Source: Cyanobacteria bacterium auto_48_18 (GTDB lineage: Bacteria > Cyanobacteriota > Vampirovibrionia > Obscuribacterales > Obscuribacteraceae). Taken from it: 25,654 nt of DNA. This document shows, one piece after another, positions 20,387 to 25,654 of the stretch (the first letter of the stretch is position 1; the number at the start of each line of letters is the position of its first letter). Location of the stretch: assembly GCA_036170915.1 (NCBI GenBank), contig JAVHQC010000038.1:1-25654 (forward strand), in the 5' to 3' direction. Position numbers and translations under genes: made by a program. The notes beneath the pieces were generated by a model. It did not search any database. It was not told the DNA's origin and saw only the letters and a program-made list of their open reading frames with translations.

Positions 20387-21457
20387 TTATTTTGTGCTCT
20401 GGCGCAGCGCAGCCACGTTACGCTTGGCTCGGTCACCCACTTGATCATAATAGGCGGTTCTTTCAAGAGCACCAGCGGCGGCGTCAAAATTACCCGTTCT
20501 CATAAGCCCGTTAAAAGTGGTGAACTCTTGCAGTTTGGCTGCACCCATATTAAAAGTTAGATCTACAGCAACAATTTGCGCACTTTTTGGCATGCTGTCA
20601 AAATTTGGATAGAGCGCCCGTGCTTCCATTACTGTTTGCGCTATATCACCATCAAAAAGCACTTTGATTTGTTCATCAGTAAGTTCAGGCTTTGGCCCTT
20701 TATAACTTTTACTGGCCGATTTGACCATCAATTCATAATCAACGCCCAGGGCTTCGATCTTGGCCCGCGCATCGGGCCTTTCGAGCATAAAGCCAATGCC
20801 CACAGTGGGGTAACCCTTAGAGCAATAATAGGCGCACTTCTCGCTGCTCTCATTCAGTGTCTCCATTTTAAAGAGATTTTCTCTTTGCTCTGGCGTCAAA
20901 AATGCTTTTGCCTTCTCGGTGTCTTGCTTGAACTGAGTAAACTGATCGTAGAGCTTCTTCATAGTCACTTCACCATCAATGGACACAGTTCGCTGAAAAG
21001 TGCCATCACTAAAAGTGGCATTATGGCCATTCACAGTTTGAATTTTACCGTTCACCGCAAGCGGCATGCCGACTTCATTGTACGTCTGCCATTTCTGGTT
21101 ACTGGCATTGTATTTCAATGCTGTGCCATCAGCAAAAGTGATTGACTCAAGGCGATCGCCTGACCAGACAAACTTTTCTTTGCTATCGGAAGGACCGTAA
21201 GAAAATACTTGCCTGTCATTAATTGATAGACTGGCTTTGCCTGCGCTATCAACTTTAATCTGACCATAGTCTGTGCTGGCATTGCTGACGATTGGATTGC
21301 CAATTTCGATTTTTGGTAAAAGGTCTAGTGCGCTCGACTTAGTGCGCTTAAAAGGATCGCCCGGTGAGAAAGGTCGATCGTCGCCATACAAATCAAGCAA
21401 ATTAATGGTTGGCTGCTCTTTGACTTCACTCCGCTCTGCTCGTCTCGCATCACTCAC
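20387..21457 (-). CDS. T4-type (GH24) lysozyme domain protein with a ~190-aa N-terminal extension
   Basis: C-terminal E-X8-C-X5-T triad (NESSEKCAYYCSKGYPTVGIG), DLTFNMG, AA..L..T.YY.QV..RAKR. N-terminal charged segment plus beta-rich repeats (ITFADGT, ATFSDGT). No signal peptide. Confidence 0.88.
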   Translation of the reverse strand: MSDARRAERSEVKEQPTINLLDLYGDDRPFSPGDPFKRTKSSALDLLPKIEIGNPIVSNASTDYGQIKVDSAGKASLSINDRQVFSYGPSDSKEKFVWSGDRLESITFADGTALKYNASNQKWQTYNEVGMPLAVNGKIQTVNGHNATFSDGTFQRTVSIDGEVTMKKLYDQFTQFKQDTEKAKAFLTPEQRENLFKMETLNESSEKCAYYCSKGYPTVGIGFMLERPDARAKIEALGVDYELMVKSASKSYKGPKPELTDEQIKVLFDGDIAQTVMEARALYPNFDSMPKSAQIVAVDLTFNMGAAKLQEFTTFNGLMRTGNFDAAAGALERTAYYDQVGDRAKRNVAALRQSTK

Positions 21458-21659: not shown

Positions 21660-21707
21660 CCAAGCTTCTGCCGTATCTAAGCTTCCGTCGTACCTAAGCT
21701 TCCGTCG
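21660..21707. repeat. Three 17-bp-period copies of the ileS 3' end
   Basis: CTAAGCTTCCGTCG at 21694-21707 (last codons plus stop) and 21677-21690; degenerate CCAAGCTTCTGCCG (11/14) at 21660-21673. Confidence 0.85.
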
Positions 21708-24540
21708 CCCACTCGGCCATCACTTCATTACAAGGCAGGCACAAGTCGGGCAGCAGGCCGGCTCCTACTTCCTCAGTAAACTTCCAGCAGCGGGCACATT
21801 TGGTGCCTGAGGCTGGTATTACTTTGACACTGATACCATTTTCTTGAATGGCAGCCAGGGCCTCAGCGGTAGATGTGATGCCAATCACGGCCTGCGAGGT
21901 GATGAAGAAACCTGGTAGGTCAGCGCCCAGTGATTCTACTTTCTTAGCCAGTTCAGCATCATCAAAGGCTAATTCAACTTTTGCTTCTAGTGAACCGCCG
22001 ATTTTCTTAGCCGCACGAGCTTGCTCGAGAGCCTTGTTCACGGTGATGCGCACGGCAATAAGTTGATCCCAAAATTCAGCTTGTACTTGATCGTCAAACG
22101 ATTTGTCTGGTTTAGGGAAATCAGTCAACAGTACGCTTTGATGACCACCACCAAAGGCTCTCATGGGCTCGCTCATATGCTGCCAGATGTCTTCGGCCAT
22201 GTGTGGCGTCACTGGCGCGAGTAAACGTACCAGGGCTTGCAGCATGTGCGTTAGAACCGTTTGTATAGAGCGGCGTTTGAGCGATTTGGTCGAAGAAGTG
22301 TAGAGAATATCTTTAGCAATATCGAAATAAAACGATGAAAGTTCGACCACACAGAAATTTTGCAACAGTTGATAGTATTTGAAAAATTCAAAACGATCAA
22401 AATCTCGCGTCACTTCTTCAACAAGTTCGTTGAGGCGGTGCAACAAATAGCGATCTAGTGATGAAAGCTCGCTCAAAGGCACGCAGTCAGCCGGGTCAAA
22501 ATCATGCAAGTTGCCGAGCAAGAACCTCGCTGTATTGCGAAGCTTGCGATAAACTTCGGCCAGCTGAGCCAGCATATTTTTGCCGATTGGAATATCGTCA
22601 GTGTAATTGACAGAGGCAACCCAGAGGCGCAATACATCGGCACCATATTGTTTGATCACTTCATCAGGGTCAACAACGTTGCCCACCGACTTAGACATTT
22701 TACGACCGTTTTCATCTACTACAAAACCATGTGTGAGCACAGTTTTGTAGGGCGCGCGGCCATGAATGGCAACGCTGGTCAAAAGTGATGACTGGAACCA
22801 GCCGCGGTGCTGGTCAGAACCTTCTAGATATAACTCGCACGGGGTGCCGCGCAGCTCAGGGCGTGCGTCGAGCACTGCGGCGTGAGTGACCCCCGAGTCA
22901 AACCAGACATCCATAATGTCGGTTTCGCGTACAAAATCTGATGATGAACACTTGCCGCATTTCATGTCGCCAAGAAATTCTTGTGGTGCTTTTTCCCACC
23001 AGCTGTCTGAACCTTCAGCATCAAACACTTTTGCTACAGATTCGATACTTTCTTCATTCATCAATGGCTCATTGCATTTTCGGCAATAAAACACAGGTAT
23101 TGGCACACCCCAGGCGCGCTGCCTGCTTATGCACCAGTCAGAGCGGTTTTGCACCATATTGAAGATGCGGTTGCGTCCAGAATTGGGCAGCCATTCTACC
23201 TGGTCAATACACTCAAGTGCTTTTGCCCGGAAGCCTTCAACTGAAGCGAACCACTGTTCTGTGGCTCTGTAAATCAGTGGATTTTTGCAACGCCAGCAGT
23301 GAGGATAGCTGTGTGAAAAAGTTTGATGCTTGAGCAAAGCACCAACTTCTTTTAAATGCTCCACAATTAGCGGGTTGGCTTTGCCATAATGCTGGCCTTC
23401 GAACTTGCCACCCTCGGCAGTAAATATGCCGCGGCCGTCAACGGGAGACAGCACGCCCAGTTGATAAAGCTTGCCTACTTCAAAGTCTTCCGGACCGTGA
23501 CCTGGTGCAGTGTGCACCACCCCAGTACCAGCTTCGTTGGTGACGTGATTACCAACAATCACCCGACTATTTCGTTCTACAAAAGGATGCCTGGCTTCGA
23601 TTAACTCGAGCTCTTTACCAGTAGCTGTGCCTAATAGTTTTATTTGAGCCGGATCTATTCCTACAGCCAGCAAAAATGCATCTTTGAGGCTTTGTGCCAC
23701 CACTAGTATGCCATGGTCTTCCGTTTGCAAAAACTCATAGACAAAATCAGGATGCAGCGCTACAGCCAGATTGGCAGGTAGTGTCCAGGGCGTGGTAGTC
23801 CAGATCACAAATGACAATGGTGTAGAAGCGACGCCATTTGTACTGCCGGAAATAAAATCAGGCATGCGGCCGCGCTCGCTATCAGGCACAGCAAACTTGA
23901 CGTAGATAGAATCAGATTTGTGATCGGCATATTCGACTTCGGCTTCAGCCAGAGCGGTTTCGCACGTAGGGCACCAGTAAACAGGCTTGAGCCCTTTGTA
24001 GAGATAACCATTGGTCACCATTTTGCCGAACACACGTATTTGTCTGGCTTCAAAATGTTGATCAAGGGTGATGTACGGATTAGCCCAATCGCCCCAGACA
24101 CCCAGTCTTTTAAAATTGTCTTCTTGCCCTTTCAGATTTGAAAGCGCAAACTCGCGACATTTTTTGCGCAACTCTACTGGAGTAATGGCGGCGCGGCCGC
24201 CTTTTACGTCTTTAAGAGCAGCATTTTCAATAGGCAAACCGTGACTGTCGTAGCCAGGCACGTAAGGAGAATAAAATCCGTGGAGAGATTTATATTTGGT
24301 GACGATGTCTTTAAGAATTTTATTGAGGGCAGTGCCGATGTGAATTTTGCTTGAGCTCAAATAAGGAGGGCCGTCATGCAGCACAAACTTTTCTGAGCCG
24401 GCGCGCTTTTCCAGGTTGAGTTCATAGACGCGTTTGTCTTCCCAGAATTTCTGAATCTCCACTTCTCTTACACTGCTATTTGCTTTCATGGGAAAGTCGG
24501 TAGCGGGTAGATTAACCGGGTATTTTTTCTTCTCGTTCAC
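21694..24540 (-). CDS. ileS: Isoleucine--tRNA ligase (bacterial type 1)
   Basis: LHDGPPY, HIGT (HIGH variant), WTTTPWTLPAN, GTGVVHTAPGHG, WCISRQR, EGSDQHRGWF, KMSKS, C-terminal CARC...CLPC zinc finger. Confidence 0.98.
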   Translation of the reverse strand: MNEKKKYPVNLPATDFPMKANSSVREVEIQKFWEDKRVYELNLEKRAGSEKFVLHDGPPYLSSSKIHIGTALNKILKDIVTKYKSLHGFYSPYVPGYDSHGLPIENAALKDVKGGRAAITPVELRKKCREFALSNLKGQEDNFKRLGVWGDWANPYITLDQHFEARQIRVFGKMVTNGYLYKGLKPVYWCPTCETALAEAEVEYADHKSDSIYVKFAVPDSERGRMPDFISGSTNGVASTPLSFVIWTTTPWTLPANLAVALHPDFVYEFLQTEDHGILVVAQSLKDAFLLAVGIDPAQIKLLGTATGKELELIEARHPFVERNSRVIVGNHVTNEAGTGVVHTAPGHGPEDFEVGKLYQLGVLSPVDGRGIFTAEGGKFEGQHYGKANPLIVEHLKEVGALLKHQTFSHSYPHCWRCKNPLIYRATEQWFASVEGFRAKALECIDQVEWLPNSGRNRIFNMVQNRSDWCISRQRAWGVPIPVFYCRKCNEPLMNEESIESVAKVFDAEGSDSWWEKAPQEFLGDMKCGKCSSSDFVRETDIMDVWFDSGVTHAAVLDARPELRGTPCELYLEGSDQHRGWFQSSLLTSVAIHGRAPYKTVLTHGFVVDENGRKMSKSVGNVVDPDEVIKQYGADVLRLWVASVNYTDDIPIGKNMLAQLAEVYRKLRNTARFLLGNLHDFDPADCVPLSELSSLDRYLLHRLNELVEEVTRDFDRFEFFKYYQLLQNFCVVELSSFYFDIAKDILYTSSTKSLKRRSIQTVLTHMLQALVRLLAPVTPHMAEDIWQHMSEPMRAFGGGHQSVLLTDFPKPDKSFDDQVQAEFWDQLIAVRITVNKALEQARAAKKIGGSLEAKVELAFDDAELAKKVESLGADLPGFFITSQAVIGITSTAEALAAIQENGISVKVIPASGTKCARCWKFTEEVGAGLLPDLCLPCNEVMAEWATEA

Positions 24541-24566
24541 TTGCGACCTACAATTTTTCTGGTATT

Positions 24567-24600
24567 AAAAACAAAAACCGCCAACAGAACTGCTGGCGGT
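24567..24600 (-). terminator. Attenuator terminator in the ileS 5' leader
   Basis: Minus strand ACCGCCAGCA-GTTC-TGTTGGCGGT followed by TTTTGTTTTT, 26 nt upstream of the ileS GTG. Confidence 0.88.
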
Positions 24601-24623
24601 GGTAATTAAACAACCCTCGCCTG

Positions 24624-24671
24624 CTACTTGCGTTTAATAATTTCTGTGGAAATCACGTTGCCAAGTTTCAC
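24624..24671 (-). CDS. Putative ileS leader peptide MKLGNVISTEIIKRK (alternative ATG start at 24689, 21 aa)
   Basis: GAGGG SD-like element before GTG; three ATT Ile codons (24651-24653, tandem pair 24636-24641); stop lies directly before the antiterminator/terminator. Confidence 0.75.
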   Translation of the reverse strand: MKLGNVISTEIIKRK

Positions 24672-24712
24672 GACGAACCCTCTGCACATTACATAAGTAG
24701 TTTACATAAAAG

Positions 24713-24742
24713 AGAATAGAGGCGTTGATGCTCGGCCGTCAA
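24713..24742 (-). promoter_or_regulatory. Sigma70-type promoter for leader-ileS
   Basis: Minus strand TTGACG (24742-24737), 18-bp spacer, TATTCT (24718-24713). Confidence 0.6.
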
Positions 24743-24809
24743 TAAATACCTAGTATTCTCTAAACAAGTCTTTATTCAGTTATGTGCACCTTACCCTGGA
24801 GATAATTGC

Positions 24810-25613
24810 TTGTCTAACGTTCTAGAAGTAGCTCTGGCCGCAGCAAGAGCAGGCGGCGAATTATTAAAAAGCCGGGTGGGCAAAATCAAAACTGTCGACT
24901 ACAAAAGTGCCTACAATCTGGTCACTGACGTCGATAAAGCATCAGAAGAGCTGATTATTAAAATCATCAGCAAGGCTTTTCCTCAAGATGGCTTTTTAGC
25001 TGAAGAAGGCGGCGTCACCAGTGGCAAAGGCGACGCTGTAACCAAGCGGCGTTGGATTATCGATCCACTTGACGGCACCACAAATTACACCCACGGATAT
25101 CCGTTCTTTTGTGTTTCTATTGGCGTAGAAGAGGATGGCGAGCTCACTCACGGTGTCGTTTTCAACCCCATGAGCGGCGAGTCTGGCGAGCTTTTTCGAG
25201 CCAGCCTGGGGCAGGGCGCCTTTTTAAATGACGAAGCCATTCACGTCTCAAAAAACGCCTCCCTTGACAATAGTTTGCTCGCTACCGGATTTCCACTAGA
25301 CACAGTCAATAACGTCTACAACAACATGGATAGCTTCAAGCACATTACCAATATTTGCCATGGAGTGCGCCGTGATGGCTCAGCAGCCTTAGATCTATCT
25401 TTTGTCGCCTGTGGTCGCCTCGACGGCTTTTGGGAGCGCAAGCTGTCAGCCTGGGACGTAGCTGCCGGCAGCTTGATAGTGACCGAGGCAGGCGGCTCGG
25501 TTAGCGACCTCGAAAACGGCACGCTCGATATGATGAGTGGTCATATTCTTGCCAGCAACGGCAAAATCCACGGTGAAATAGTTGCTGCGCTGGCAGCGGC
25601 CAACGCCCATTAA
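24810..25613 (+). CDS. suhB: Inositol monophosphatase family protein (SuhB)
   Basis: LVTDVD, LAEEG, WIIDPLDGTTNY, R.GSAALDL..VACGR.DG.WE, WDVAAG; GGAG SD before TTG. Confidence 0.95.
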   Translation: MSNVLEVALAAARAGGELLKSRVGKIKTVDYKSAYNLVTDVDKASEELIIKIISKAFPQDGFLAEEGGVTSGKGDAVTKRRWIIDPLDGTTNYTHGYPFFCVSIGVEEDGELTHGVVFNPMSGESGELFRASLGQGAFLNDEAIHVSKNASLDNSLLATGFPLDTVNNVYNNMDSFKHITNICHGVRRDGSAALDLSFVACGRLDGFWERKLSAWDVAAGSLIVTEAGGSVSDLENGTLDMMSGHILASNGKIHGEIVAALAAANAH

Positions 25614-25654
25614 TTTTAAAGTTCGGGTTTTTCGATCACATTGCTAATTTTAGC

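Follow-up and report, generated by a model that had tools for sequence, protein, structure and literature searches.

A putative leader-peptide attenuator with isoleucine control codons upstream of ileS in the Obscuribacteraceae

Introduction

The pheM-pheST system of Escherichia coli is a leader-peptide attenuator of an aminoacyl-tRNA synthetase gene. Attenuators of this kind have been described for pheST and for leuS and trpS of Streptomyces (PMC1262725), for leuS, trpS, thrS and alaS of Streptomyces lividans with their leaders leuL2, trpL2, thrL and alaL (PMC8079986), for the hisS paralogs of Bacillus (PMC2965389) and, under the name uORFC-8-2, for cysS of Rhodobacterales (PMC8632094). In the available parts of these four papers, ileS is not given as a leader-peptide-attenuated gene. 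According to the same parts, the described systems have in common with the locus reported here a short upstream open reading frame (uORF) with cognate codons and, in several cases, an antiterminator together with an intrinsic terminator. Compared by description only, the present locus differs from them in that the codons are for Ile only, the gene is ileS, and the host belongs to the Obscuribacterales within the Cyanobacteriota.

A leader ORF before ileS has a described counterpart in Caulobacter crescentus, CCNA_03934, which appears as an "ileS leader CDS" and was named as a negative control in a ribosome-profiling study (PMC4117421); the available part of that paper gives no Ile content, terminator or mechanism for it. 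The general scheme of the four-segment trp, his, leu, thr and ilv attenuators of enterobacteria (PMC1183508) shares with the present element, as far as the available part of that source describes it, the regulatory codons, the mutually exclusive 2:3 and 3:4 helices and the race between ribosome and polymerase. In Firmicutes and Actinobacteria, ileS is found under T-box riboswitches (PMC1262725, available part). For cyanobacteria, a paper of 2016 stated in its available part that reliable data on attenuation were lacking (PMC4833913).

The mechanism class itself is textbook material, and control of synthetase genes by leader attenuators is well documented. In the main texts searched, which did not extend to the broadest survey of synthetase attenuators (Lopatovskaya et al. 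2010), no description of the element was found. None was found either that brought Obscuribacter, Obscuribacterales or Melainabacteria together with attenuation, and "ileS" is absent from the main text of PMC11109978 and PMC6429828. Within that literature, a complete Ile-specific terminator switch at ileS in Cyanobacteriota is new. We put the probability that this leader is a ribosome-mediated transcription attenuator sensing charged tRNA-Ile at roughly 0.86.

Results

Anatomy of the ileS leader

The window, that is, the whole stretch of 25,654 nucleotides that was analysed, carries on its minus strand a gene of 948 codons' worth of product (21694..24540), the gene presumed to be controlled. 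The first-pass annotation had taken this gene for ileS, the gene of isoleucyl-tRNA synthetase (IleRS), and the product indeed scored 973 bits against TIGR00392, for which the cut-off is 621. It was the single match at E<=1e-50 when the genome was searched with the IleRS N terminus. Its closest relatives are mostly from Candidatus Obscuribacter, Obscuribacterales or Melainabacteria, with 93% identity to a Ca. Obscuribacter IleRS, which places the window in Vampirovibrionia, a non-photosynthetic class of Cyanobacteriota. The leader is intergenic and lies between ileS and a divergent inositol-monophosphatase-like gene on the plus strand (24810-25613; family match below cut-off).

The promoter, GAGGG word, uORF, terminator and U-tract described by the annotation were all found at their minus-strand coordinates. 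The predicted sigma70-type promoter, TTGACG-N18-TATTCT, occupies 24713..24742 (-35 box 24742-24737, -10 box 24718-24713). As stand-alone evidence it is weak, because four promoter-like sites were found in 23500-25654 and 2.0 are expected by chance; 55 of the 69 element-bearing relatives have a promoter-like site with a spacer of 17-18 at most 170 nt above the uORF start, and in 50 the -35 box reads TTGACG. The SD-like GAGGG precedes the start codon at 24678..24682. Such a word is not general: of the 69 leaders, only 9 have one ahead of the start codon that was chosen.

The uORF has 15 codons, MKLGNVISTEIIKRK, and runs from GTG at 24671 to TAG at 24624 (24624..24671). An in-frame ATG further upstream, at 24689, was considered as the start and was not favoured; the relatives back GTG 24671, with ATG or GTG at this position in all 13 genus members (9 ATG, 4 GTG). 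Ile codons stand at positions 7, 11 and 12 of the uORF. All three are ATT and two are in tandem, as had been noted; the placement of the pair "just before the stop" was inexact, since it sits three codons before it. The tandem codons Ile11-Ile12, the putative control codons, lie at 24636..24641 and the third Ile codon at 24653-24651. A candidate pause hairpin inside the uORF (24626..24666, minus strand), built from ACUUG/CAAGU and AUUUC/GAAAU, was present in the consensus of nine genus sequences and in the minimum free energy fold of the window. It is tentative and confined to the genus, and no compensatory change was seen in its 10 pairs.

Below the uORF, an intrinsic terminator hairpin (24577..24600, minus strand) is formed by a 5' arm at 24600-24591, a loop at 24590-24587 and a 3' arm at 24586-24577. 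The U-tract TTTTGTTTTT (24567..24576, minus strand) follows directly after the stem, which ends 38 nt above the ileS start. Taken alone, the terminator is no more than chance would give, with two matches against an expectation of 2.6, and the folding of the whole window leader gave z = -1.6. Across the family, the strand just past the stop codon nearly duplicates the 3' arm of the terminator, with the core GCUGG, and both are complementary to the same 5' arm. In the window, this antiterminator 5' strand, GCAGGCGAGGGT (24613..24624, minus strand), pairs with 24603-24592 at 9 of 12 positions, in agreement with the pairing first proposed. The segment has a stability of -14.1 kcal/mol, which exceeds chance, since 29 of 2000 spacer shuffles were as good. 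The whole element spans about 150 nt, and a covariance model built on it found one copy in the genome.

Other features of the neighborhood were recorded as well. At 24775-24755 (minus strand), just above the ileS -35 box, the window and most family leaders carry a conserved word, AATAAAGACTTGTTTAG in the window and GAAATAAGATTCATTAAC-like in other genera, which is also present in genomes without the attenuator. This word may serve the divergent gene as its promoter, or a factor may bind there. A palindromic hairpin, AAAACGCAGAGAAATTTTGCGCAAATTTCTCTGCGTTTT, lies at about 21510-21480 (minus strand), ahead of an ORF at 20387-21457, and has near-identical copies on contigs C29 and C30; we tentatively read it as a small repeated element or a bidirectional terminator. 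The ORF itself (minus strand, 356 amino acids) has a C-terminal half that resembles, by eye, a glycoside hydrolase family 24/T4-type lysozyme domain.

Conservation of the element in the family

The sample comprised 107 genomes of the order. An IleRS N-terminal match was obtained in 99 of them and upstream DNA from 98; the one genome left out of the leader set had an IleRS match starting at residue 77. The 98 leaders consist of 95 from the family of the window and three from a second family, and 11 leaders from other families of the class were added. The terminator was defined blind to the peptide, and all ORFs ending 20-45 nt above it were taken as candidates. By this definition the family terminator is present in 71 of 95 family leaders and in none of the 14 others (second family and rest of the class). 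In 69 of the 71 it is preceded by a short ORF with at least two Ile among its last seven codons, which is the conserved Ile-containing uORF that the first-pass annotation had anticipated in relatives. Over the last seven codons of all candidate ORFs, Ile accounts for 215 of 616 residues; by the per-leader count, the runner-up, Ser, reaches 12 of 71. The element occurs in 23 of the 36 genera of the family, whereas 13 genera and 24 of 95 family genomes are without it. Because the genomes are related, these leader counts are not independent.

The two leaders that keep the terminator and miss the uORF are L094 (genome G105) and L096 (genome G081). In G105 the promoter runs nearly straight into the hairpin, as though the uORF had been deleted. 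Our tentative reading of both is decay or misassembly.

An independent, generic test, which asked for a terminator together with a uORF, detected an Ile cluster in 70 of the 95 family leaders. Among 96 outgroup leaders, drawn from elsewhere in the order, the class and the phylum and perhaps including a few duplicate genomes, it detected none; seven of these have an Ile-Ile ORF without a terminator. In searches confined to Cyanobacteriota, the covariance model matched 73 of the 107 order genomes, and in 120 other genomes of the phylum it gave one marginal match, which is not at ileS. Two genomes outside the training of the model have a complete element directly before ileS. The model also gave weak matches in G021 (its second), G027 and G199; none of these precedes ileS, and they look accidental.

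Coding of the uORF and tests for a T-box

The uORF peptides are alike only in the Ile run, as in MTSSIIIRP, MPSAPSSSIIIIS and MSTLLVSAIII; the N-terminal sequence and the length of the peptide vary freely among relatives. In a frame test anchored on the Ile-Ile pair, a start codon upstream and a stop codon one to six codons below were found in 67 of 68 leaders, against 1 of 68 and 4 of 68 in the other two frames. The Ile codons of the family vary synonymously at their third positions (ATT 165, ATC 47, ATA 15). The Ile frame is under selection.

The coding evidence bears directly on the possibility that a ligand works the terminator and antiterminator, be it IleRS, a metabolite or, in the manner of a T-box, uncharged tRNA, and that the Ile codons are merely an AU-rich binding motif. 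Such a switch would explain why no word above the helices is better conserved than ATTATT in the leader alignment and how two leaders can keep the terminator without a uORF; a binding motif would not, however, tie start and stop codons to one frame while its third positions change synonymously. A weak match to the L10 leader (E 0.28) points the same way, but it reaches only 20.8 bits against a gathering threshold of 44 and rests on the terminator.

A T-box riboswitch (RF00230, translational ileS T-boxes) was tested for and rejected. The T-box motif TGGNACC occurs in 0 of 69 leaders. The search of the whole window against Rfam gave no gathering-level match, that of the window leader at E<=10 gave three chance-level matches, and that of 20 relatives at E<=5 gave three more of the same level; no T-box or other riboswitch was among them in the window or the 20 relatives. 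No Rfam family accounts for the region, and we regard a ligand switch as very improbable. The ileS T-boxes control the same gene and, by inference, respond to the same signal, the charging of tRNA-Ile; in the element described here, the sensing would instead be done by a translated ORF.

Covariation and folding of the rival helices

Both stems were compared in 61 distinct leaders. For the terminator, 93% of cells are paired and two-sided changes occur at six of nine pairs, with 78 two-sided cells in all, a value reached in 0 of 500 shuffles. Six to seven T follow within 8 nt of the stem in 60 of 69 relatives, and in the other nine the U-tract is weak (4-5 T of 8). For the antiterminator, 87% of cells are paired compared with 25-58% in slid registers. 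Its covariation is modest (three of seven pairs; 149 of 500 shuffles were as high) because the core is almost invariant. In the genus of the window, the antiterminator helix is aligned in a shifted register, towards a 5' extension of the arm. The distance from the start of the last Ile codon to the antiterminator strand is 12-19 nt in 67 of 69 leaders, and from the start of the stop codon it is 1-13 nt.

Folding was then constrained by a ribosome, using the nascent RNA below it and footprints of 6, 8 and 10 nt past the A site. In the window, the probability of the antiterminator was 0.79 with the A site on Ile compared with 0.05 on the stop codon. The switch was obtained in 40, 46 and 52 of 69 leaders at 6, 8 and 10 nt, respectively, and failed in 17-29 of 69. 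Most genus members gave about 0.5 on Ile and 0.41 on the stop at the 8-nt footprint, perhaps because the helix there pairs mainly 5' of the scored 5-nt core. In nascent RNA without a ribosome, the antiterminator forms in 65 of 69 leaders. When the full-length leader was folded at equilibrium with the ribosome on Ile, the terminator still won in 44-47 of 69 leaders, including the window (P = 1.00). For read-through, the antiterminator would therefore have to be trapped kinetically.

The dominance of the terminator at equilibrium is also what would be seen if the uORF were translated and the hairpins served fixed termination, as a constitutive dampener or as the end of a separate small RNA, with little control by Ile; the family genomes that live without the element would fit this as well. 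A dampener has no need, however, of a second copy of the 3' arm, and in 23 genera this copy keeps a constant spacing to both the Ile run and the stop codon. The 38 nt between stem and ileS start leave little room for a separate promoter. We consider fixed termination a very poor candidate for the function of the leader.

A pause/protector helix had been proposed between 24638-24631 and 24612-24605. All eight of its pairs form in the window, but it is not conserved: seven and six of eight positions pair in the two closest relatives, and three to four of eight in the other 10 genus members. A family-wide 1:2 helix was sought by comparing one leader from each of 23 genera with shuffles, and none was conserved. 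In 13 of the 23 genera, the antiterminator strand paired with upstream RNA more than the shuffles did on average (medians 0.62 versus 0.57), with no fixed position of the partner. Without this control a 1:2 helix had seemed to be present in 56 of 69 leaders; once controlled, it was not above shuffles. Because the proposed protector is unconserved and no 1:2 helix is conserved, the element is not of the full four-segment trp design. The trp/his/pheST geometry suggested at first thus stands for uORF, terminator, antiterminator and spacing and falls for the 1:2 protector, whereas the proposed logic, a stall on Ile against covering of the strand at the stop, fits the conserved spacing and the footprint folding. 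Of the refuting conditions named in the first-pass annotation, the two open to sequence analysis, a lack of the Ile uORF in relatives and an Rfam T-box match, did not hold.

Sibling leaders and amino acid metabolism

Leaders of ilvD were surveyed in 20 of 46 ilvD-bearing genomes (L190-L209). Within 80-330 nt upstream of the gene, 17 of 20 have their own promoter-like site and an Ile/Leu/Val-rich ORF. The ORF ends in an R-C-G-like tail, and its codons supply a strand, GGUGCGGG, that matches the 3' arm of a terminator CCCCGCAC...GGUGCGGGG; ORF and terminator occur together in 14 of 20. We regard this leader as a candidate attenuator of the ivbL/ilvL type. Upstream of ilvD lies a leuA-like gene that reaches none of the NCBIfam cut-offs for leuA or cimA. 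In 16 of 18 cases it is preceded by a leader ORF with a Leu run and then by GACAGAGC...GGCUCUGU...ACAGAGCC and a U-tract; because this leader is Leu-only, the gene product is suggested to be isopropylmalate synthase. Second copies of serS (L308-L321) have leader ORFs with Ser runs and hairpins in 10 of 14 cases. Among the main serS copies, eight of 30 gave loose Ser matches, none of them convincing, and the single serS of the genome of the window likewise has none.

In this genome, inspection by eye of ten other synthetase genes (tentatively those for Ser, Thr, Pro, His, Phe, Tyr, Trp, Val, Leu and Met) revealed no such leader. A strict gene-blind attenuator scan of the genome listed 30 candidates, of which none but ileS is convincing; ileS has the most stable rival fold (-14.1) among the listed candidates. 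A loose version of the scan gave at least 139 noisy candidates. One candidate on the minus strand of contig C22, above a gene at 32757-34028, has the ORF MAILTAFHHRPGG with tandem His codons and a weak terminator; the next gene shows no evident link to His, and the candidate was dismissed as probably due to chance.

The search for ilvD in the genus of the window found it absent in 14 of 14 genomes. The genome of the window, which is 86% complete, has no hisG, no trpE-family match and no ilvB above cut-off, and from these gene absences it likely has several amino acid auxotrophies. An ilvC-like gene is present in it; of 14 other members of the genus that lack ilvD, 11 have one too, and it may have another role. 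Despite this gene, the organism is likely an isoleucine auxotroph, because ilvD is absent and no ilvB scored above cut-off. No link between the element and isoleucine biosynthesis, judged by the presence of ilvD, was evident: leaders with the element come from 29 genomes with and 40 without ilvD, and those lacking it from 13 with and 13 without.

Work on runaway transcription is reportedly the source of the distance between stop codon and terminator as a criterion for coupling. The genome of the window has 69 terminator-like hairpins behind long ORFs, and only four of them are found within 12 nt of the stop codon, a figure compatible with coupled transcription and translation.

Discussion

The element upstream of ileS has every testable feature of the leader-peptide attenuator class. 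It is not a T-box, and it fails to show the 1:2 protector of the trp type. From its anatomy we infer that the uORF is translated, that the hairpin terminates transcription and that termination responds to Ile. Transcription would start about 35 nt above the uORF, with the ribosome trailing the polymerase. At ample Ile-tRNA, the ribosome would reach the stop codon and cover the antiterminator strand 1-13 nt past it, so that the terminator could form and transcription would end in the U-tract near 24570, giving a leader RNA about 135-140 nt long. At scarce Ile-tRNA, the ribosome would wait on the Ile run, 12-19 nt above a free antiterminator strand. The free strand could then pair with the emerging 5' arm before the 3' arm exists, and the polymerase would read into ileS. 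Such a switch would be kinetic. Because no protector helix is conserved, it would be the time the ribosome spends at the stop codon, and not a 1:2 hairpin, that sustains the off state.

A ribosome stalled at any point before the last few codons would leave the antiterminator strand free, and this opens another reading of the same anatomy, in which the uORF is translated and controls the terminator and the signal is a general slowing of ribosomes or an arrest by the Ile-rich nascent peptide, mediated for example by a drug or a factor. The residues after the Ile run are often small or basic, and ATT is over-used in the run (73%, compared with 55% of Ile codons genome-wide, where ATC and ATA make up 31 and 14%), both of which would suit such a signal. 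On the other hand, Ile alone is conserved and the length and N-terminal sequence of the peptide are not, the controlled gene encodes IleRS itself, and the sibling leaders match the amino acids of their own pathways. These points make a signal other than charged tRNA-Ile unlikely, if a little less so than the ligand switch and the fixed terminator considered above.

With sensing of charged tRNA-Ile as the preferred reading, the element differs from the enterobacterial attenuators in two respects: it is without a conserved 1:2 protector, having only a genus-level candidate pause hairpin, and it controls a synthetase gene, not a biosynthetic operon. In place of the T-box found at ileS in other phyla, a translated leader would do the job, and the family provides a clean and well-sampled case of this.

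On balance, we favor the view that in Vampirovibrionia at the level of the Obscuribacteraceae the set of attenuators (Ile at ileS, Leu at the leuA-like gene, Ile/Leu/Val at ilvD-ilvC and Ser at the second serS) is the first evidence for ribosome-mediated attenuation, and hence for functional coupling, in Cyanobacteriota. In the same view, the attenuator at ileS would be of a minimal design, with three strands and no protector; it would have arisen independently of both the ileS T-box and the alphaproteobacterial leader and be kept even in genera apparently without isoleucine biosynthesis. Together, the ileS leader and its siblings indicate coupling of translation and transcription in uncultured relatives of cyanobacteria. 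As the genus of the window is without ilvD, the switch there would adjust the synthetase to isoleucine obtained by scavenging. In most genomes of this non-photosynthetic family, the element likely raises the output of the enzyme when charged isoleucine tRNA is scarce.
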